Origin: Gammaproteobacteria bacterium
Lineage (GTDB): Bacteria > Pseudomonadota > Gammaproteobacteria > SZUA-229
Length of the DNA stretch: 44,343 bases
Reading direction: 5' to 3'
Assembly: GCA_041589615.1 (NCBI GenBank)
Contig: JBFHVK010000002.1
Span: 1-44,343, forward strand
Of this stretch, positions 4,579-41,397 are shown piece by piece. Under the pieces are notes generated by a model. The model did no database searches. It saw only the letters and a list, made by a program, of their open reading frames with translations, and had not been told where the DNA came from. How positions within the stretch are numbered: the stretch's first letter is position 1; each line of letters starts with the position of its first letter. Both the position numbers and the translations under genes were made by a program.

Positions 4579-7500
4579 TTAAACAACCAACCCGATATGT
4601 TCAGTCGAGTTTGATCGGATTTCCCAGCGGTCAAGTGTTAGTGTGTCACCACTGAAAGTATTGCTGCGCAGGTAGATAACATCACCAGCGGTGACAGAGA
4701 ATGAAGTTGAATATGAAGAACCCACAATTGATGACCATGTCGCCATTGTCGTTCCGTTCCGTCGAACATAGCATTGAGGGTCGCTTGTGCCGCCGCTAAA
4801 GTCTGCCCAAACGGTTATTGTTCCAGACGCTTTGCATATTGCTGTACGCGTTGTGAAGTTGTCACCATTCTCAGAATAGTAAAGCGCATCGGTAGAGTTG
4901 TATCCATCGCACCAGATTCGAACAGACCCAGATACTAGCGTGTCTCTATCTATAGAACCGGATGATTGAGTTCCAAGTAATACTCCATCACCATCGATGT
5001 AAATATCACTTCCACCGGAAGAAACTGCATCTGCGCCATTAATAACCACCGTTCCATATGCGACATATATGCAATAGTTAGTACACCCAGAAAGATCAGA
5101 GTTGTACGCATTAACTGTTGATCCAAGTGTTGACGTTATACCTGTAGGCGGATATGGAGAAACAAGGGATGTCCCAACGATAGATATGTTGGCGGAATCT
5201 GATGCCCATGCCAACTGAAGGTTGCAGTCCTCGACTGTTGATGATGATGCGTCTACGCTACCATCGTTTGAGCGAGCATAGTAGCCAACTCTAACTGCCG
5301 AAGCTCTATTCCCGATTATTTCACCACCATCGTCAGCCCAAAAAACAGAGCCAAAATCCTCAATATTTTGAGCTATGGCCATTATTCTCCCGTAACTATC
5401 AGCTCTGCAAAAGACTCCGTTGTTTTGACTATACCCTGAAAATGTATAGTTACTAGATGCTGTCAAGCTGTTTGTTGTTATTTTTGCACTTCCGTTATCG
5501 TGAGCATAGATTATTCCAGATATATCTGTTGTTAAATCGACACCACAGCTAAGTATTGGGGCCACACCACCATTATAAACCTCAATCCAATAATTGAGCC
5601 CAGATGGGGAAATTGTTAGCTGCCCAGACGTTTCAGTTGTCGTTATTGTGATCCAACCTAAATTTATACCGTCTATTGAATGGAAGTCGGTATCAACATA
5701 CCCACTCTGGCACTCAATAGTCGCAGTAAAGCCGCCGTTTTGATATGCAGGAACAACCCTACTTAATGCTTCTAATGCCTCATCAAGGGTTTCATAGTCG
5801 TAACCAGAACCAACTGTAACTGTTCGGCTTGTGTTATCGCCAATGGTAACTTCTGATCCAATAGTAATGACACTGCCGTCAAACGAAATAGAGTTATCAC
5901 CAGACCCGAAACTAAAGTTACCATTACTGTCTATATAGGTTTCAAACTGAGTGCCATTATAGTAACCCATGTAAGTTGAGGTTAGATTAAGGCCGGTGGT
6001 AGCTGAATCAGTAATCCTGTCTGGAATATTGGATAGAGTGCTGTTCCAGTCAGCGCCGACTGTTGCGCCTGATTCAATGCCGCTTAACTTAGTCCCTTCA
6101 GTCGAGTTCACGTCACTTAGTGATGTAGGCTCATTGGATATGTTTGAGCCCCAAGTAGCTCCAACAGTCGATACTTCATCCCATGTTGATCCGTTATACC
6201 TGCTTAAACTATCACTGCCGTCAGTATTAAACCAAAGATCACCCGCGCTTGCCGTTGTTGGAGCGGTTGTCTGATAATAAACCACAGCTTTACCGTCCGC
6301 CGTGGTTTGTGCTGTTTGCGCTGCATTAATTGCAGATGCAATATCACTATCTTGCGCACTAACCCACGAGGAGCCATTGTATCTATATACAGTGTTTCCA
6401 TCGTCAGTATCGAACCAAATATCACCATCGTCCATACCTGATGTAGGCTCAGAATCTTGATAGAATGACGTTATTTTCCCGTCAGCCGTAGACTGGGCTG
6501 TTTGAGCAGCAGCTAAAGCATCAGCTGCTTCTTGACTGACAATCAGAACCTGCGCGTCAACATAATCAGATACATCTTGTAAAGATGGAGACCAAGCTGT
6601 TGCTTTGTTACCACTTTCAAACTTAACGCCACAAATTGATGCTGTTTCGCCAACTTCAGAATCAAAAATACGACCAACAATTATATTTTTTATTGCCGAA
6701 TCACCAATTACCCATGTAATCCAGTATCTAGCCCAATCAGTTGTTAGCGTTGTAATGATGTTCCCATCAACCGATGATGACGTGTTCCCTTGAGAGTTGG
6801 AGGCTGAAACCGTACTTGAATCTCCACCATAAAGATATGACCTTATTGCGGTTCCGTCTGTATCTGATTTAGCATAAAAAGAAACTGTGAACGTAGTGTT
6901 TGATGACGTGTCAATATTGGTCTTACTGACAAAATCTGTGAACCCTGACGCTGGCCCTGTGGCCGCAGATATAGCAAATCCGTTGTAGTAATCTCCAGTC
7001 AAGTAAGTGGCGCTCCACGCTCCACCATCCTGAGTTCCATCTATTATGTTTATGCTGCCAACTTCGATATTATCCGCTGTATACTGAGCTGCCGCTGCAT
7101 CAGCTAATGCCTGTGATGCCTCAGATGATGCGGTTGTTAATGTAGAGTATTCTGTTGAATTGATGTCGTCTAGTGATGTTGGTGTTCCGCTGATATCAGA
7201 GTAATCATCAGCTGTGGCCAAGGCACCAGCATCAGAGAAGTTACTAACGCCTGAACCGCCAGTAATAGTCACAGAGCCTGTGAATTTAGCGTTACCAGCA
7301 GCATCAACCCAGAATGGGTAATTGCCAGCACCTTCTGCATATAAGATTAATGGGTTTGCACTTTCCGTGGGAACATCAACAGCACCCATAGTGACAACAT
7401 AACCACTATTAGTTGTATAAACATAGCCATCACCATCAATCTTAACGCCAGAATCTACGCCGTCACCTACCTGAACGTATTCAGTTGCAGCTATTGTTCC

Positions 7501-10500
7501 GGCAGTAATTTTGCCAGCGGAAACATCACCTATTTTCGCGTCAGTTACAGCTAGGTTACTGATAGCAGCAGTGCCAACAGCCAAATCTTCTATCTTTGCG
7601 CTAGTTATAGCTGCATCTGATATTTGAGCTGTATCTACAGCCAAGTCACCAATCTTTGCATTGGTTATTGCTGCATTAGCTATAGCGGCGGTACCAACAG
7701 CCAAGCTTGCTATCTTTGTTGATGTAACTGAGCTATCTGCCAGCTTAGCAGCTTCAACAGAAAGGTCAGCAAGCTTGCTTGTATCAACAGAGGCATCAGC
7801 CAAATTAACCGACTGCAACTCGCCAGTTATAGCACTACCTTCAAGATCAATACTTCCATCAGCTAGATTGTTTGCAGTTACAGCAAGGTCTGCCAGCTTT
7901 GAATTGGTGACACTATCATCAGCAAGTAGTGATTCGACTATTGACCCTGTTTCAACATACGTGCTGATGAATGCAGCATCAGCTTCATCGATAGTCGCCC
8001 AAGCACCGAGGCCATCAACATCAGCTGCATCAATACTCAGTAGTGTAAATTCAATGGTTGAACTTTGCTCGCCAGTGCCGAACTGATCTACAGACTCCAG
8101 ACCGACAACGTATGTTGTACCTTGTACAAGGTTGTCCCAAGTTACATTGTTTCCAGATACTGTTTTATAGCTTCCCTCTGTGTAAGGGTTATTGCCTGAG
8201 CCTTCTACGATGTAAGCATTAACGCCAACAAAATCAACATCAGTTGGAAGTGTGTAGTTCACTGTAAGGCTTGTGTAGCCAACCTCGCTAGATATGCCAC
8301 TAACTGCGCTAGGCTCTGGATTCTCTACGCTGATGCTTACATAGTCAGATGCGTAGCCAGTAGTTGCTACAGCCTGAACAGCAATAGTGAACTCACGAAT
8401 CGGAGTGCCATTATCTGTCTTATTCTTGTCGTAAGTGTAGGTATATTCTGGCTCAGTAAGTAGCGAAGATTCCCTCAGTAAATTGCCGTCACTATCCGAT
8501 ATAATAACTTTGTATCCAGATAAGAACACATCAGTAGAGCCACTTAATGAAACGATAGAGCCGCTGTCCGATGTTGACAATTCATTCCATTGGAATTCAG
8601 CATTGCCAGACTTAAACTGATTCCATCCTTCGTCATCATCAATTCGGTTTACCAGCTCCAAAGCTGTTGGCGTGGGTATAGTTAATGCTTCGTCTACGTC
8701 TGCCGTATTTTCACCTGCACTGACCTCTGTATCGTTCTCTACGATAGTTGTAGTGAATGTTGATGTGGTTACGCCGCCAGCAGCTCTAGCTACGTTGTAC
8801 GCAGTTACACGGATGTCGTATGTAGTGCCATCTGATGCCACTTCGAACGTGGTTGAAGTCGATGTGTCATAGCTTACCGATGTCCAAGTTGATTGCGTTG
8901 GCAGCTTGTATTCAACCAGCGCGTAATAGAAGTTATCGTCAGTTGAAGTTACATCAACTTGAATTGTCGATATGTTGCCAGCAGCGGATACTGGAGTATT
9001 GAGTAGCTCAGTGACTGTGAATGTAGGCGCTAACGCAGACTCGATTGTATCCTTGGTTGTGTCTGGAGTGTAGTCTTCAGCGGCAAGGAATCGCATCTTA
9101 TGGATTGCTGATTGATTGGTTGAAGATGAGTAGGATGTACCAGCATAAACTTCACCTGCTTGATATTGCGCGCCATAAGTATCTGATCCGGCAGTGCCAC
9201 GATAAACCTTCTTCCAGCTATCAAGATAGTTTTCTACATTGCTATCCCACGATCCAGAATCAGCTGTAACCAAGTCGTAAAGTATAGGTTCGGCAGCGTC
9301 ATTATTCTTTTGTGCAACGATACAGATTCCAGGGTAGCCAAATCCTGACATACCGCCAGCTGCATTAATAGTGACTGAGCGATCATCCCCATTGGCTCTA
9401 TAGTCGAACGTTACGCTTCCTTCAGTGCCTTGATTTGCGTCATCACCAGATAAGTCGATCGATGAGCTAGACTGATAGTAAAGGCCATCACAAATAAAGC
9501 ATATGCCAGCACCGCCAGATACAGCAGAGCCACCAGAAAGAACTTCAGTGCCATTATCGTATGTTGACTGACCACCAGCCCCGCCGCCCATGCCATTTAA
9601 TGAGCTTGGCAGTATTGCCGTTACATCATCGCCATCAGATATTGAAACTGTATACGACAGATCAATAGAAGTTGCCACATATGACGTTGTGCTTCTGTTC
9701 GAGTACAGGTTGATTAGATTGGATGTATTATTTGAATCCATATCTAGGCCATTCATTGACGCGTTACCGCCGCCAAAATAGCCATCATGCCCTACTGCTC
9801 CGCCCCTTCCTTTACCATCAATCTTTGCATTATCTTCAAGTGTAAAATCATCACAGTCAAAATAAACTGAGCCATTGATGTAAATGGTTGAGTCAGTATC
9901 TACAACGATATCACCGTCATAATAGTATTTGCCATCTGGAATGTTCGCGCCATCAGTAAATGTGAATGTGCTGCCGTCATGAGTGCCGTATGTTCCGGCA
10001 GACAGGTCAGTCCATCCAGTATGATCAATACTGTTAATAGCATCGCCGTTATCTGCTGTGAACGATGTTGGAACACCTTCAGATGCGAACAGGTTTAAGG
10101 TCACTTGGCCAGCAAAGAAATCAGTTGTTACCGATTGAACCTCAAATGACTCAAAGTAAGTGTCGAGTGTTTTATAGTCCGGCTCCTGCTCAAGCGTTAA
10201 GCCGACAATATCGCCAACCTCAATCTCTACAGCGTGACGGATTGGCACAGAAACAGTTCGCTCGATTGCGGTATTAGCAAGTCGCTTGACTTGAGACTGA
10301 GCAACGAAATCAAGGCTGGTTGATGAGCTTGAGTCTCTATTTCTCAGGCCCAGCAACTCAATTTCTTTAACCTCTGACTTAGTGCCGTATTTGGCCGCGC
10401 TATTTGCATCAAGGTAATAATCGAAGCGGTTATATTCTTCCTCAATCGGGTCATAAGACCAACTTATCTTGAAGTAATTCGTAATATCAGAAACGTCACG

Positions 10501-11640
10501 ACTATTCTCTGAAACGTCATATATTTCATCGTAGCTAAGCGTTACGTCTGCAGGTTGCTGCATTGAAACGTAATCATAACGATTCAGGACAAAGCGGCCA
10601 TACTGGTCGATCTTCAAGTAAGTGCCATACGGCATCAGGCAATAGTTGCCTAAGAATGTCTTTGCGTCTTCTTCGTCAGGGTTGCGGAACTCAATATGGT
10701 TAGCCCAAAGGTCACCGCCGATATTCTCGAAAGAGCTTAAATCAACCTCTGATGTGTCTACGCCAGCGTGCCAGTGGCTTGGGAGGTCATTGGTGATGAT
10801 CCCATATCTTTTACCAGTCAGAAGAGAATAAACCATTTCAGGCTGCGGCAAATCCAGATAAATGAATTCAGTTAGCGTTACTTCCTGGTAGTCGCCGTCA
10901 TCATCAGTATAGGAAAGGTTAATTCGAGTAGTGCCAAACTTCCCACGCTCTACGCCATAGAATGTTGTGCCGTCTGTTGATGAATAGCCGATATACTCAG
11001 TTGCCGAATCGCCATTCTTATCAGTGCCTTCAGCTATTAAGTATCCGCGAGTTTCGCCAGCATCGATAGCCCAATCATCGTCGTGCTCTACTGCCTCAAA
11101 GCCAGTAGTTGAATCGACAATGATCTCATCGGTGTCATCATATCCATAATTCCCGGCCAGCGTGCATTCGTACGGGTCGGCAAACAATTCATCTTTAGTG
11201 ATTCGCTGAATATCAGAAACTGTAATTGTGTAGCTGATCTCATCGTTAGATGGATTTTCGATTAATCCAACGCTATGTCGAACGAAGTCATCAAAATCCA
11301 TACCCTCATAGCCAAAGTAAAAGTATGTGTATTTATTGTATAGCTCATCTCCATCACCATAGATGGTATTCCATGTTGTTGTGAATGCTAATGCTTTGTC
11401 TAGTATCTGGAATGAGCCGCCGCCAATCTCGCTAATGGCTTCCTCTGGCTCAATAGTCTGCGATCCTACAGAGCAGCTTATCAGCAATCCTTGGTGGAAA
11501 ATTCCGTTAGCGTCAGTAATGTCGATGTCTTTAGATGTCACATAGATATTGTAAGAGTCTGTGACAATCTTAACGACAACAATAGGCTCTGCGCCTTTGG
11601 ATGCATTGTATGTACTGAACGATTCACTTAAAACGCGCAT
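4579..11640 (-). CDS. Giant (2353 aa) multidomain tail-tip / host-recognition protein (central fibre).
   Basis: It follows the tape measure and a small distal tail protein. It contains FN3-like modules, Gly-rich beta-helix-like segments, decapeptide repeats and duplicated GD(I/L)WF..YRYNGS.W modules. The start overlaps the upstream stop as TAATG. Confidence 0.8.
   Translation of the reverse strand: [2353 protein letters not shown]
6178..6510 (-). repeat. Duplicated ~50-aa module inside the giant tail gene.
   Basis: [47 protein letters not shown] is followed by [46 protein letters not shown]. Confidence 0.8.
7495..7935 (-). repeat. Internal tandem repeat tract inside the giant tail gene. It has a 10-aa periodicity, with about three 60-nt DNA units at its core.
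   Basis: Protein: ...[61 protein letters not shown]... DNA units share acagccaa.tc..c.atctttgc..t.gttat.gctgc. Confidence 0.8.
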
Positions 11641-20233: not shown

Positions 20234-20704
20234 ATGACCATCATCGAAAAAGCCACATATGTTTTACTCTCAGTCATTATGATGACCTACATGCAGTGCG
20301 CACAAGCTGCTGATGTGTCTGTCTATCACGACATAGGCACAGTACACATGAATGAGTTCAACAGCATTCTAAATAACGATAATGACGTAACCATTATCAA
20401 GGTCAATGGCTTCCTGTTCGGCACCATGACCAATAGCTTCAACGATGACGGCTACTTTGCAGGCTATCAACGCAACCTGTACCGCAATGGCAGCTTTTAC
20501 CTTGATGGTGGCATTACTGCGCTATTCGGATATAAAGACCACTACTACACAGACGGTCAGCGCATCATCGATGATCCAGAATCAAAGGACGTTACTTATT
20601 TTGCGCCTATATTCTCTGCTGGATTTGAGATTGTTGACGGACTGTCATTTCAAATAAACAGTATGGCCGACGTTATTAACTACGGCTTTAAATTTGACTT
20701 CTGA
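20234..20704 (+). CDS. Secreted small outer-membrane beta-barrel-like protein (a moron in reverse orientation).
   Basis: A signal peptide ends in AQA|AD. Alternating hydrophobic strands are present, and the C-terminus YGFKFDF ends in an aromatic residue. The gene has its own RBS (aaggag). Confidence 0.5.
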   Translation: MTIIEKATYVLLSVIMMTYMQCAQAADVSVYHDIGTVHMNEFNSILNNDNDVTIIKVNGFLFGTMTNSFNDDGYFAGYQRNLYRNGSFYLDGGITALFGYKDHYYTDGQRIIDDPESKDVTYFAPIFSAGFEIVDGLSFQINSMADVINYGFKFDF

Positions 20705-35314: not shown

Positions 35315-35363
35315 GCGTATTACTCCTAAGTTGTATTAATTACTAAGTTATATTTATTACTTA

Positions 35364-35391
35364 ACTATAACCATCTTACTGGTTAAGTGAA
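35364..35391 (-). promoter_or_regulatory. Candidate promoter of the helicase/primase operon: TTCACT, 16-nt spacer, TATAGT.
   Basis: The minus strand reads gTTCACTtaaccagtaagatggtTATAGTtaag. The core GGTTATAGTTAA is nearly repeated at 36743-36754. Confidence 0.5.
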
Positions 35392-35399
35392 CTTTTCCA

Positions 35400-35856
35400 G
35401 GTAAAGTACCCCAAGGGGCCATTGCTAGAAGCAAATCGAACTTTACCCGCGCCTTGTTCAGTCGGCGGTAAGGTCTTGACCATCATCACAATTAAGCCAA
35501 GTTGCAATCATTCCTCGTTGTGACGAGTCCAGCCCCTTTAATTGCTTTCGTACTCAGTTGACGCGTGGGCGTATCTTCTACGTCTCTCAATACAGACCGG
35601 TGAGTGAGGCCGCCTCCGGCCCGACATATCTCTTCTGTATCCAGCTGCATAACCTGTTCGGAGAAGGTTATTTAAGGCGCTCTGACTTTGCCAGCTAGCA
35701 GTGGCGGGATTTAGCACGTAGATTTGAAATGAAATTTGATGCCTCGTCCCAGTATGTCCCAAGTAAGTTGCGGCAGGCCAAATTCAGGAGTGAAATCAAG
35801 AATCGGGACAAGGTGGCTTTTCGAAGGTCGGGGAGCTAACCCAGTTATCTAGCCGC
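35400..35856. ncRNA. Candidate structured RNA / regulatory region A. It is ORF-free and hairpin-dense, and its strand is undetermined.
   Basis: There is no credible ORF. Helices: 35400-35407/35440-35447 (8 bp, enclosing two small hairpins), 35590-35596/35634-35640 (7 bp, enclosing the GC hairpin 35608-35612/35617-35621), 35649-35655/35665-35671 (7 bp), and long-range 35770-35774/35852-35856. Confidence 0.35.
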
Positions 35857-35857
35857 T

Positions 35858-35910
35858 TAAGTAATAGTGTACCAACGTTGGCAGCAAAATCAATAGCTAT
35901 CTATTACTTA
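35858..35910. promoter_or_regulatory. Operator-like perfect 10-bp inverted repeat TAAGTAATAG ... CTATTACTTA, flanking the palindrome CCAACGTTGG.
   Basis: 35858-35867 is the reverse complement of 35901-35910. The palindrome lies at 35872-35881. The right arm ends 6 nt upstream of the TATAAT -10 hexamer (35917-35922) of the HTH gene promoter. Confidence 0.5.
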
Positions 35911-35914
35911 TTTC

Positions 35915-35922
35915 TGTATAAT
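35915..35922 (+). promoter_or_regulatory. Extended -10 promoter (TGtATAAT) of the HTH gene.
   Basis: The sequence reads tttcTGTATAATtgtaac, about 30 nt upstream of the start codon. Confidence 0.5.
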
Positions 35923-35952
35923 TGTAACAAACAAACAAACATGGAGAATATT

Positions 35953-36249
35953 ATGAGTAACTTAAGCATATTAAAATCAATTGTTGAATCTGACCAAGAG
36001 GCGGCAGATTTGGAGTTCAGAGCTACCATGCTGATTTGCATTAACCAGATGATAAAGGAAGCTGGCCTGACACCTAAGCAGGTGGCGAAAATATTAGAGG
36101 TTCCAGCGCCACGGGTTAGCGAACTATTGGCTGGCAAAGTATCATTGATGTCTGCAAACAAGCTGATCAAATACTTAGGCGCGTTCGGGTTTAAGATTGA
36201 CATGTCATTTAAAGACGGAAAGCTATCGGCTGAAGTGGTTAGCGTTTAG
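35953..36249 (+). CDS. XRE-family HTH protein resembling HigA-2-type (COG5606) antitoxins. It may be a repressor.
   Basis: LTPKQVAKILEVPAPRVSELLAGKVSLMSANKLIKYLGAFGFKIDMSF. GGAG lies 7 nt before ATG 35953, with an alternative in-frame ATG at 35941. It is the only + strand gene inside a minus-strand region. Confidence 0.65.
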   Translation: MSNLSILKSIVESDQEAADLEFRATMLICINQMIKEAGLTPKQVAKILEVPAPRVSELLAGKVSLMSANKLIKYLGAFGFKIDMSFKDGKLSAEVVSV

Positions 36250-36279
36250 CCTTGCATTTATGCCATTTTCTGGCAGAGC

Positions 36280-36288
36280 TGGTATAAT
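36280..36288 (+). promoter_or_regulatory. Extended -10 promoter (TGgTATAAT) directly after the HTH stop codon.
   Basis: The sequence reads gagcTGGTATAATgtgc. It points into the ORF-free region B. Confidence 0.5.
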
Positions 36289-36294
36289 GTGCTG

Positions 36295-36830
36295 GAGCAA
36301 CGCATCAATGTTTCCTGTGCGTTGTGATAGGCGTGAGAACCTAATGCTGAGCTAGGCAGCGTGGCAGTCCGAAATGACCGCGCCGTAAGCGATAAACTAC
36401 CTAGCAACTATCCGGAAAAACCAGTGAGTTGCCGGCAATGAACCGTGGTGGCGGCCGCCCTCCTCGTAGAATGAATAAGCGGCCTTTGAATGAATCGAGT
36501 GTATGAACAGGTGGCATACGCCAGCACTCATCCGGCCAATGGCTGTCAGCCCAAGAGCGACTATAAAGCGAGCCTAGTTAGCAACATCCAGAGGAATGAT
36601 TCCGTTGCACGAGCCGAAAGGCCCTGCCAGTCAGGTTAAATCGTATCTGCTGAGGTTATTGTTTGTAGCTTAACCGATTAGACAAGGAAGTCTATCTTTG
36701 AGGTTTGCCTCGCCCTATCTCACGACAGTGCTTAGCGTCTGGTTAACTATACCAGCACGAGATGCGGAATCACCTTCCTTATCTAATTGCGATGAGTGAC
36801 TGCAAAATACCAACAGTCATGGTTATTATA
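36295..36830 (+). ncRNA. Candidate large (~0.5 kb) structured RNA B. The + strand is favoured, and an antisense transcript is also possible.
   Basis: No ORF of 60 aa or more occurs in any frame across about 590 bp. Many local helices are present, including the GAAA tetraloop hairpin 36613-36622, 36298-36304/36318-36324, 36351-36356/36400-36405 enclosing 36359-36364/36378-36383, 36453-36458/36479-36484 and 36634-36639/36670-36675. A terminal hairpin lies at 36797-36802/36814-36819. Confidence 0.4.
36746..36754 (-). promoter_or_regulatory. Extended -10 promoter-like element (TGgTATAGT) on the minus strand, convergent with the one at 36280.
   Basis: The minus strand reads cgtgcTGGTATAGTtaacc. 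It shares GCTGGTATA with 36278-36286 as an inverted repeat. Confidence 0.4.
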
Positions 36831-36843
36831 AACTAATTGTTGG

Positions 36844-37026
36844 TTATACCACAATCAGAAACCCTATCCACCCAATAGCGCCCCAGCAAAACATTGCAAT
36901 CATTGCTTTCGTTGAGCATTCATTCTCAGACCTTCGCCCTGAAAAGTACCCCTTGCAAAACCACATTGACTCAGCTGTTTTACACTCATCAAGTACCAAT
37001 TTTTCTACATCATCAAGATAGGCCAT
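36844..37026 (-). CDS. Small membrane protein (60 aa).
   Basis: The C-terminal TM reads AMIAMFCWGAIGWIGFLIVV. A 3-nt gap separates it from the upstream gene. Confidence 0.5.
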   Translation of the reverse strand: MAYLDDVEKLVLDECKTAESMWFCKGYFSGRRSENECSTKAMIAMFCWGAIGWIGFLIVV

Positions 37027-37029
37027 ATC

Positions 37030-37353
37030 TTATACCTCAATTAGTGATTCTTTCCACCAGTCGGTATTTGGAGCGCATGCCATCTTTCCGACCAATACCG
37101 TAGTGTCGCCATCTGTATTCATCCATAAATCACCAGCCTCTGTAGGCGTAGAGTCAAACGCGAATATACGTAGGTCACTATCTGTTGCGATGGCCTTTAC
37201 GTTCTTATGGACCACCAGCTTAACACCAAAATAATCAACCACTTTCTGAGGCTCTTCCAGCTCGAATTTAAACGCCTGCTCGGCCTCTTTGTACGCCTTC
37301 TGCGCCGTCTTAGCTGTGTAGGTTATTGGGTGCACTCCGTTATTGTCTAGCAT
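37030..37353 (-). CDS. Hypothetical protein (107 aa).
   Basis: The ORF is tightly packed in the operon. Confidence 0.55.
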   Translation of the reverse strand: MLDNNGVHPITYTAKTAQKAYKEAEQAFKFELEEPQKVVDYFGVKLVVHKNVKAIATDSDLRIFAFDSTPTEAGDLWMNTDGDTTVLVGKMACAPNTDWWKESLIEV

Positions 37354-38088: not shown

Positions 38089-38128
38089 TTGACACCACAA
38101 TAGTAGGCGTATATCATGACCGCGTCAA
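38089..38128. promoter_or_regulatory. Overlapping divergent early promoters.
   Basis: Rightward: TTGACA (38089-38094), 17-nt spacer, TATCAT (38112-38117). Leftward on the minus strand: TTGACG (38123-38128), 17-nt spacer, TACTAT (38100-38105). Confidence 0.6.
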
Positions 38129-38150: not shown

Positions 38151-38324
38151 TTGAAAAATTATTTAACAATGCAAGAAATTAGTGATAGGCTGCAAGTGAT
38201 GAATGTCAGCAAGGTTGCGCAGGTTACTGGCGTATGCCGCAACGTGGTATCGAATGCCAAGAAAGGCAAGTTGATTAACTACGAGGCAGGGCGCAAGATT
38301 GCTGAGTTTTTGATTAATCAATAA
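38151..38324 (+). CDS. Cro-like small HTH protein (57 aa).
   Basis: RBS agggga lies before TTG 38151, with an in-frame ATG at 38169. The HTH reads MNVSKVAQVTGVCRNVVSNAKKGK. It is the first rightward gene and is below the ORF-track cutoff. Confidence 0.55.
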   Translation: MKNYLTMQEISDRLQVMNVSKVAQVTGVCRNVVSNAKKGKLINYEAGRKIAEFLINQ

Positions 38325-38334
38325 GGGGTTGAAG

Positions 38335-39102
38335 ATGAGCATAAAAAACATGACGCTCTGGGATAAGGTTCAAAAGACCAACCCAGCGTTCACCAAGGAG
38401 AATAAGCACGGTGCAGGCGGCGGAACAAGCATTAACACCACCTACGCATTCAAGTGCGCAACTGAAGCCTTTGGGCCAATCGGTATTGGCTGGGGCTATG
38501 AAGTATTGGCTGATGAAATTATTGAAGGAGCTACCGTATCTTTTGGCGCTAAAGAGTCTCAGCAGTTCATTACTGAAAAGATTCATACGCTCAAGATTAA
38601 ATTTTGGTATAAGCTGAACGGCGAGCGTGGAGAGTTTGAGCAGTACGGGCACACAGACTATGTGGGCAAGAATAAGTATGGCCCATACACTGAATCAGAA
38701 CCGCAGAAGAAAAGCCTTTCAGACGCTATTAAAAAGGCTCTGTCGATGCTTGGCTTCAGTGCTGACATCTACCTTGGCATGTATGATGATATGAATTATG
38801 TTAATTCAGTCATTGCAGAAACATCAGCAGAGACAGCCGAGGAGATTATAGACCGTGAAGAAGCCAAGGCTCAGGAATTCAGAGACTGGGTAGAAGAACG
38901 GAAATCAATATACGACGCTGCCCAGTCGGTCAATACCGTTAAGACTGCGCACAATAAGTCACTACGAGTATTGAACGAAAGGTTCAGTCGTGGATTGATA
39001 AGTCAAAAACAACATGACGGCGCTGTTATAGCGCTTGAAAAACACTCAAAATCAGTAATTGAAAAAGGAGAATCAGGTGAAGCAACTATACAAGATAAGT
39101 GA
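38335..39102 (+). CDS. Rad52/Sak-like single-strand annealing protein.
   Basis: KKSLSDAIKKALSMLGFSADIYLG resembles the conserved Rad52/DUF1071 helix-hairpin region. A Gp157-like gene and SSB follow it. Confidence 0.55.
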   Translation: MSIKNMTLWDKVQKTNPAFTKENKHGAGGGTSINTTYAFKCATEAFGPIGIGWGYEVLADEIIEGATVSFGAKESQQFITEKIHTLKIKFWYKLNGERGEFEQYGHTDYVGKNKYGPYTESEPQKKSLSDAIKKALSMLGFSADIYLGMYDDMNYVNSVIAETSAETAEEIIDREEAKAQEFRDWVEERKSIYDAAQSVNTVKTAHNKSLRVLNERFSRGLISQKQHDGAVIALEKHSKSVIEKGESGEATIQDK

Positions 39103-39571
39103 TGATTTCAAAGGCCTTCAGGAGCTTGTTGATAACGGCGAAGTAACGCCTGACATGATTGCAGACACGCTAGAAGGCGTTGAGCTAATGTTTAACGAAA
39201 AGGCTGCAGCCGTTGTTACGGTTGCGAATCAGTTTAAACTTGATGCTGAGCTAATCGACACTGAAATTAAGCGACTTCAGGATATGAAGAAAAGTATGCT
39301 TGGTCAGCGCGATAGCTTGATTGAATATCTTCGCACCAATATGGAGAAGAGCGGGATTAAGAAAATCGAATGTCCATTATTCAAGATAACATTGCGTGAT
39401 GGCAGTAAAATGGTAAGCATCACAGACGAGTCGGCATTGCCAGATGACTATGTGTCGGTTAAAACGACCATCGCACCGGATAAGCGTAAAATTCTGTCAG
39501 ATTTAAAAGCGGGCGTTGAGATTGAAGGCGCAGAAATTGAAATCGGTAAATCATCAGTATTGATTAAGTAA
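39077..39571 (+). CDS. Siphovirus Gp157-like protein.
   Basis: AAGGAG lies 6 nt before GTG 39077. The N-terminus LYKISDDFKGLQELVDNGEVTPDMIADTLEG and the ~165-aa length fit the Gp157 family. Confidence 0.6.
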   Translation: MKQLYKISDDFKGLQELVDNGEVTPDMIADTLEGVELMFNEKAAAVVTVANQFKLDAELIDTEIKRLQDMKKSMLGQRDSLIEYLRTNMEKSGIKKIECPLFKITLRDGSKMVSITDESALPDDYVSVKTTIAPDKRKILSDLKAGVEIEGAEIEIGKSSVLIK

Positions 39572-41369: not shown

Positions 41370-41397
41370 AGCCCCTATGCGTTAGGGGCTTTTTTTT
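41370..41397 (+). terminator. Rho-independent terminator.
   Basis: agcccct-atgcgtt-aggggct, followed by ttttttt. Confidence 0.85.

Follow-up and report, generated by a model that had tools for sequence, protein, structure and literature searches.

The question raised by this locus is what a 594-bp interval without genes does between two convergent genes of a phage. The DNA analysed, a tailed-phage genome of 44.3 kb (contig JBFHVK010000002.1, 44,343 nucleotides (nt), hereafter the window), carries a gene for a 98-amino-acid (aa) XRE/HTH_37 regulator (the HTH gene) that is bordered by two stretches free of open reading frames (ORFs), gap 1 (35315–35952) and gap 2 (36250–36843). The latter, the gap under study, had been proposed in a reading made from the letters alone (the sequence-only reading) to encode a large structured RNA on the + strand and to be transcribed from both ends. 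In particular, our analysis lends no support to a large structured RNA on the + strand. What we tentatively favour, at somewhat less than an even chance, is that gap 2 is an orphan non-coding junction of two convergent transcription units, with non-coding or antisense transcripts acting by interference or pairing.

Gap 2 is non-coding. It separates the HTH gene on its left (35953–36249, + strand), which is called as a gene on 13 contigs, from a 60-aa ORF with a hydrophobic C-terminus on its right (36844–37026, minus strand), also called as a gene on the contigs, and its 594 bp contain no ORF of 60 aa or more, in line with the sequence-only reading, which had put the interval at about 590 bp. 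The longest stop-free run is 58 codons, a value not exceeded in 6.5% of shuffles, so the lack of ORFs is by itself only mildly unusual. Each frame contains 9–15 stop codons and all three kinds occur in every one of the six frames, for which reason stop-codon recoding was rejected. In a three-periodic Markov model, for which long genes of the same phage were the training set, coding log-likelihoods were negative in all six frames through both gaps and positive over the flanking genes, including the HTH gene and the 60-aa ORF, on which the model had not been trained. Frame-shifted remnants of a known gene, which would have spoken against an RNA, were not found: none of the stop-free segments of gap 2 matched Pfam or PHROGs (E up to 1), nor did tblastn (E up to 1) detect them in 50,697 phage records, and the gap is thus non-coding by every test. 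A decayed gene, or a decayed toxin beside a HigA-like HTH protein, was rejected because neither gap holds a protein remnant. With a GC content of 0.47–0.53, compared to about 0.45 in its flanks, gap 2 is the GC-richest part of the neighbourhood.

Gap 2 is also an orphan. Searches with blastn against the 50,697 phage records (INPHARED), at E 1e-5 and then at E 5, gave only chance matches of 24–38 nt, and no homologue was found by DNA in E. coli genomes, so that the collection of homologous regions from which covariation was to be judged came up empty in both the phage and the E. coli sets. Twelve degenerate 24-nt seeds, derived from stop-free pseudo-translations of the gap, were scanned over IMG/VR (no hit), the JGI metagenomes (one spurious locus, L111, with a 21-nt stretch only) and the GTDB genomes (one spurious locus, L119). 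Blastn and nhmmer detected no similarity to gap 2 in all 2 Mb of retrieved loci. The neighbouring genes are themselves isolated to varying degrees: the HTH protein has no relative in a set of 5.8 billion proteins or in IMG/VR, the 107-aa protein encoded next to the 60-aa ORF has none in IMG/VR, relatives of the PAPS-reductase-like protein share at most 65% identity and occur in unrelated contexts, and the loci of 73 helicase relatives (about 55% identity, mostly in enterobacterial prophages) show no similarity to gap 2. The locus itself is present on at least 13 contigs, assembled independently from one sequencing-run series (SRR292574xx), which are 100% identical to the window in all overlaps. 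Given 13 identical contigs from different runs, the locus is genuine and not an assembly artefact. Since there is no homologue and the 13 contigs show no variation, covariation analysis is not applicable to gap 2. The assemblies of three low-coverage samples break in or beside the gap (contig ends at 36274/36308, 36646/36653 and 36868/36926); both sides of these breaks are identical to the window and the breaks are probably a coverage effect. A further observation concerns the enterobacterial prophages with the related helicase (about 55% identity), which contain mosaic ORF-free gaps of 400–680 bp directly downstream of a cI-like (S24) repressor gene (L045, 4040–4717, with equivalents in L043, L052, L055, L068, L083 and others). 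One 160-nt block of these gaps also occurs, for the most part unannotated, in Stx-converting phages, and the sequence of the gaps is unrelated to gap 2.

Transcription of gap 2 is plausible, because its left end carries a promoter, P_A, that is as good as the early promoters of the phage. P_A (36260–36288, + strand) consists of the −35 element ATGCCA, a 17-nt spacer, TG and the −10 element TATAAT, was listed by the promoter scan with 10/12 matches plus the TG, and would start transcription at about 36295. The extended −10 element TGGTATAAT (36280–36288) that the sequence-only reading had placed after the HTH stop codon is indeed there, 31 nt past the stop. For comparison, the divergent near-consensus sigma-70 pair at 38089–38128 scores 11/12 for the rightward promoter (38089–38117), which drives the Cro-like, exonuclease, Gp157-family and SSB genes, and 9/12 for the leftward one (38128–38100), which drives an early operon of five genes (38067 down to 36844), the 60-aa ORF being the last. 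At the other end of gap 2, the 9-mer GCTGGTATA recurs as an inverted copy (36748–36756), again as had been claimed, and gives the extended −10-like element TGGTATAGT on the minus strand (36746–36754). This putative promoter, P_B, has a poor −35 element (3/6 matches by eye), was not listed by the promoter scan, would start at about 36739 and sits within a local hairpin (CUGGU/ACCAG). A third element, given as TGgTATAAC by the sequence-only reading, is present one base from where it had been placed (TGGTATAAC, 36843–36851, minus strand), overlapping the stop codon of the 60-aa gene; it is a weak −10-like sequence that lacks the invariant T at position 6 of the −10 element. Of the elements proposed to drive transcription from both ends, the rightward P_A is strong and the two on the minus strand are weaker. 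The pattern TGGTATAVY occurs at five sites in the whole window (1.7 expected), three of them in gap 2, which is unusual for a motif that was, to be sure, defined post hoc, and by our estimate about 0.7 perfect 9-nt inverted repeats are expected by chance in 600 nt.

No strong terminator separates the two transcription units. A strict scan found no canonical intrinsic terminator on either strand between 35200 and 37200, whereas textbook ones occur elsewhere in the genome (e.g. 41370–41390), and a relaxed scan of the region returned weak hairpin-plus-U sites only, which makes convergent read-through likely. On the + strand, a hairpin over the HTH stop codon followed by UUGCAUUU (36228–36251, −8.0 kcal/mol, relaxed scan only) is a weak candidate terminator for the HTH mRNA, and a GC-rich hairpin (GGCCGC/GCGGCC) followed by UUUGAAUG (36453–36484, −11.4 kcal/mol) is weakly terminator-like; P_A transcripts that stop at the latter would be about 195 nt long. 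Whatever their length, transcripts from P_A would have a 7-bp hairpin at their 5' end (CAACGCA/TGCGTTG, 36298–36324), whose pair probability is 0.99 on the minus strand. On that strand lies the strongest local hairpin of gap 2, 17 bp with internal loops and the tail UUAUCGCU (36396–36439, −19.6 kcal/mol, pair probabilities 0.97–1.00). Directly past the stop codon of the 60-aa gene, the hairpin ACCAACA/TGTTGGT (36809–36844) is a weak candidate for a bidirectional terminator (−8.0 and −10.1 kcal/mol), with the tails AUUUUG on the minus strand and UUAUACC on the + strand, and the 150-nt windows around it have folding z scores (z, relative to shuffles) of −2.6 to −3.3 on the + strand.

The RNA proposed for the + strand was examined for membership in known families and for unusual stability. 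The 4227 covariance models of Rfam 15 gave no match in the whole window at the gathering threshold, and at E up to 10 only three chance-level matches to eukaryotic models (two small nucleolar RNAs and one long non-coding RNA region), none of them within gap 2; one of these touches the right edge of the gap only (36801–36898, minus strand). ARAGORN detected no tRNA or tmRNA in the window. That the sequence-only reading recognized no known RNA family in gap 2 is in agreement with both searches. This result also bears on two likenesses. The immunity RNAs of P1 (c4) and P4 (CI), an analogy drawn by that reading, and of N15 (CB) (Rfam C4 family) are phage-encoded non-coding RNAs of an immunity or early region; gap 2, however, has no match to any Rfam model at E up to 10, and neither an antirepressor operon nor repeated target sites were seen. 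GOLLD and ROOL resemble it in being non-coding, phage-carried and several hundred nt long, but gap 2 matches neither at the gathering score or at E up to 10 (both families are presumably in the library), and whereas they are defined by deep covariation, gap 2 is without relatives. The four sets of helices described for the + strand all exist in the sequence, and most of them also occur in the minimum free energy fold of that strand. In most tests (z from +0.4 to −2.0), its folding lies nevertheless within the range of shuffles, without unusual stability: 551 nt gave a z of −1.88, the stretch between the presumed P_A start and the first terminator-like hairpin (36295–36492, 198 nt) one of −0.84 and the segment with the 9-nt inverted repeat at its ends (36278–36756) one of −1.98, and four non-overlapping 150-nt windows (36201–36800) gave +0.07, −1.70, +1.17 and −1.33. 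The complementarity of AAGGAAG and CTTCCTT, which had been taken as pseudoknot potential, is real and extends to a 14-nt inverted repeat (13/14 matches, arms 36677–36690 and 36774–36787). It is more simply explained as a long-range helix, and the arms form a 14-bp helix in the minus-strand fold (mean pair probability 0.53).

From this anatomy we infer how the junction might work, at the level of RNA and transcription rather than through a specific large fold. The HTH message would read into gap 2 from the left and the five-gene early-left operon from the right. P_A would produce a rightward non-coding transcript that either stops at the weak hairpin at 36453–36484 or continues antisense into the 60-aa and 107-aa early-left genes, and it would fire independently of the HTH protein, since the operator-like 10-mers of the latter (see below) are absent from gap 2. 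Leftward transcripts, arising by early-left read-through or from P_B, would be complementary to the P_A transcript and, unless stopped at the 36439–36396 hairpin, would run antisense through the HTH gene. The two directions could then damp each other by polymerase collision and antisense pairing, and this damping would determine how the HTH regulator and the early-left genes are balanced.

Partial precedents exist for such an arrangement. In coliphages 186 and P2, face-to-face promoters produce overlapping transcripts and damp each other by transcriptional interference; the promoters of 186 are 62 bp apart and each drives a protein-coding operon, whereas those of gap 2 are about 460 bp apart, lie in non-coding DNA and include a doubtful one. 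P22 sar is, like lambda OOP, a phage cis-antisense RNA. The OOP promoter lies in non-coding DNA immediately past a small regulatory gene, and its RNA is complementary to the neighbouring message and acts by pairing and interference (PMC5869508; review PMC5415839). Gap 2 shares with OOP and sar the promoter just past a small regulatory gene, with the difference that its transcripts are predicted ones. OOP, with a length of 77 nt, ends at a defined terminator and covers the 3' end of cII, whereas in gap 2 the strong promoter faces away from the regulator, its weak opponent lies about 500 nt from the HTH stop codon, and there is no good terminator. The element that would have to point back into the regulator gene is P_B, which does face the HTH gene and is the one with the poor −35 element not listed by the scan; the terminator that would have to follow is not present in canonical form in the scanned region, and the weak hairpin-plus-U sites are not suitably placed inside the HTH gene.

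Several observations weigh against an active junction of this kind. As there is no homologue, selection on gap 2 cannot be shown. The promoter scan of the 2-kb region listed three sites, compared to 3.6 in shuffles, and thus no excess, and the −35 element of P_B is poor. Furthermore, idle DNA is rare in phage genomes, and for nothing more than a junction the gap is long (594 bp). Finally, the minus strand is among the best-folding ~1.5% of the genome, possibly a sign of a function that depends on its fold.

The first alternative, doubtful in our view and yet with a real chance of being right, is that gap 2 is functionless or decaying DNA, left over from lost genes or from a cassette (moron) with which the HTH gene arrived, and that its promoter- and hairpin-like features are incidental. 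The orphan status of the gap in INPHARED, E. coli genomes, IMG/VR, the JGI metagenomes and the GTDB genomes is consistent with this, as are the lack of any relative of the HTH protein among 5.8 billion proteins and the difference in GC content between the gap and its flanks. The HTH block also looks inserted, in that the PAPS-reductase and helicase relatives are found in different neighbourhoods. Imperfect 19-nt inverted repeats (15/19 matches, 35356–35374 and 36819–36837) bracket a 1.5-kb block comprising gap 1, the HTH gene and gap 2; they fit a cassette insertion and could also be due to chance in AT-rich sequence. However, none of the six frames retains a trace of any protein family, 93% of shuffles contain a longer stop-free run than the gap does, the near-consensus P_A is located exactly at the start of the gap, and the sister gap across the HTH gene holds a conserved functional element.

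An RNA of 0.35–0.6 kb whose function depends on its fold is unlikely. Of the two strands, the minus strand is the more probable one to encode it, and the RNA would then either prolong the 3' end of the early-left operon or start from P_B, with the inverted GGTATA/TATACC copies serving as closing helices instead of, or besides, promoters. The minus strand gave z of −3.15 for 551 nt, of −2.3 to −3.7 in five overlapping 150-nt windows (36201–36550) and of −3.2 at 36651, and its 600-nt running mean ranks 9th of 584 genome-wide. Its predicted fold contains many helices with pair probabilities above 0.9, including the 17-bp hairpin at 36396–36439, and pairs GGUAUA (36850–36845) with UAUACC (36286–36281); the elevated GC content of the gap (0.53 vs about 0.45) points in the same direction. 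The defined minus-strand candidate (36739–36388), on the other hand, reached a z of only −1.67, the + strand resembles shuffles over most of the gap, no Rfam family matched even at E up to 10, and there are no relatives that could show conservation or covariation. The folding statistics are, moreover, neither specific nor sensitive here, because coding DNA scores higher and the proven RNA motif of gap 1 (described below) reaches a z of only about −1: the coding stretch 38250–39450 outranks gap 2 on both strands. The strongest z of the genome on both strands (−4 to −4.9 at 38201–38350, −4.55 from 38851 onwards) were found inside the Cro-like and exonuclease genes. A narrower version, in which a new, lineage-restricted large phage RNA (~0.35–0.6 kb) on the minus strand serves as a fold-dependent switch or decoy, instead of by simple antisense pairing, and its 5' GGUAUA copies (36850–36845 or 36755–36750) pair alternatively with the 3' UAUACC (36286–36281), appears quite improbable.

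More improbable still is that gap 2 encodes one or more very small proteins, for instance in a type I toxin-antitoxin-like arrangement. The best small ORF has 33 codons and a TTG start (36698–36799, + strand); its Shine-Dalgarno-like site AAGGAAG (36684–36690) precedes the TTG by 7 nt (duplex −6.0 kcal/mol) and could be sequestered by CTTCCTT within the ORF, the 13/14 complementarity covering this site, and an antisense RNA from P_B would span the start of the ORF, given that transcription from P_B would begin at about 36739, within the ORF and on its opposite strand. A hydrophobic N-terminal half and an acidic tail characterize the peptide, MRFASPYLTTVLSVWLTIPARDAESPSLSNCDE. Its hydrophobic stretch is, however, short and weak (best 15-residue mean 1.24), the coding log-likelihood is −9.9 (36690–36809, + strand), translation would have to begin at a TTG, behind a 5' leader of about 400 nt if transcribed from P_A, no terminator is available for the antisense RNA, there are no homologues, and ORFs of this size with a Shine-Dalgarno-like site are common by chance. 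The faintest chance is left for a DNA-level site, such as a transcription-activated replication origin or another protein-binding region, to which the adjoining replication module (PAPS-reductase-like, helicase and primase genes), the promoters and the three TGGTATA copies might point, while the gap lacks iterons, tandem repeats, an AT-rich unwinding stretch and the HTH operator-like motif and is the GC-richest part of its neighbourhood. An iteron-type or AT-rich origin in particular was rejected, in view of the GC content and the absence of any repeat family from the gap.

The regulator next to gap 2 belongs to the XRE/HigA-like fold family, as judged from matches to Pfam HTH_37 (E 3.2e-17), PDB 2a6c (E 1.4e-10) and HigA2, and is probably of repressor type. 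The window contains just two perfect copies of a 10-mer, CTATTACTTA, which form an inverted pair (35858–35867 and 35901–35910) that flanks the promoter region of the HTH gene, and a copy with one mismatch (35354–35363) adjoins a scanned leftward promoter (35391–35364) in front of the PAPS-reductase-like gene. Within the pair, a candidate leftward promoter was recognized by eye (TTGATT, 16 nt, TG-n-TACACT, −10 element at 35871–35866). The CTATTACTTA copies are likely operators of the HTH protein, which, judging by the operator-like repeats at 35858–35910, looks like a small repressor of its own promoter and of the replication and late operon.

Across the HTH gene, 700 bases from gap 2, gap 1 contains a genuine covarying RNA motif that is widely distributed and apparently undescribed. 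The same blastn search that gave nothing for gap 2 matched 35472–35570 to unannotated gaps of seven Vibrio breoganii phages, and pattern scans of IMG/VR extended the set to at least 21 further phage contigs or genomes. The motif is about 135 nt long and is read, in the RNA sense, on the minus strand of the window from 35598 down to 35464. In the 5' to 3' direction it consists of UUUAAAG, a hairpin with an invariant GCCC loop, AACUGAGU..GAAAG, a helix enclosing AGGGGCUGGAC and a small hairpin, GGAAUGAU, and a last hairpin; the invariant GCCC and GGGC could form a pseudoknot. Four helices covary: in a plain MAFFT alignment, 93% of the cells pair, compared to 72% in shuffles, and 18 of the 28 pairs have changed on both sides; none of 500 shuffles reached the observed values, and slid controls gave 31–48%. 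The strand is set by 56 G-U versus 4 A-C pairs. Rfam gave no match for the copy in the window or for four other members, and a literature search for the core sequence of the motif returned nothing relevant. A covariance model (R1) built from 22 phage sequences and run with filters off matched the window once (35464–35598, minus strand, 124.8 bits) and found nothing in 36250–36843. Gap 1 and gap 2 as paralogues were rejected, as R1 has no second match and their best local alignment lies within the shuffle range.

The motif is always located in a co-directional intergenic spacer, with the first same-strand ORF of at least 45 codons starting about 50–240 nt downstream. The replication or late operons that follow vary (helicase-primase; portal and Mu-F; an HNH endonuclease beside packaging genes), and on one contig the motif follows a small ribbon-helix-helix-like ORF at the head of a replication operon. 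This position is that of nutR or putR in lambdoid phages. In HK022, the put RNA folds into two stem-loops over about 70 nt, and the distance from the PR start to putR, which lies downstream of it, is about 270 nt (PMC9378689). Like put, the gap 1 motif is a folded RNA that follows a promoter and a small regulator gene and lies in the leader of an early or replication operon or between its cistrons; it differs in its length of about 135 nt, its four covarying helices, the possible pseudoknot and the lack of obvious sequence similarity. By this analogy, our leading guess is that the motif is a cis-acting leader element that modifies transcription elongation.

The wider genome is organized mainly in the leftward direction, with genes for the PAPS-reductase-like protein, helicase, primase, a DNA-transfer protein, structural proteins and a holin, and between 1526 and 38067 the only rightward genes are a PagP-like moron and the HTH_37 gene. 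The PagP-like lipid A acylation gene (20234–20704, +), on the opposite strand within the leftward structural block, is a typical moron and suggests a Gram-negative host. Two repeats were observed besides. A 29-nt stretch (76% identity) is common to the 3' ends of the 60-aa and 107-aa genes, starting from their stop codons (36844–36872 and 37030–37058), and a 60-nt tandem repeat (2.4 copies, 70% matches; 7562–7705) lies in a 2353-aa ORF (4579–11640).

Since gap 2 is without relatives, the structured-RNA claim can be settled by experiment only, and the lesson of the locus is that hairpins in an ORF-free gap are insufficient to call a structured RNA. Gap 2 is of modest interest alone, and the neighbouring gap 1 motif is the better target for follow-up. 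If the predicted transcripts exist, gap 2 would add a further case of a phage that uses convergent transcription and antisense RNA to keep a repressor-like regulator in balance with early genes, a useful example rather than a new principle.

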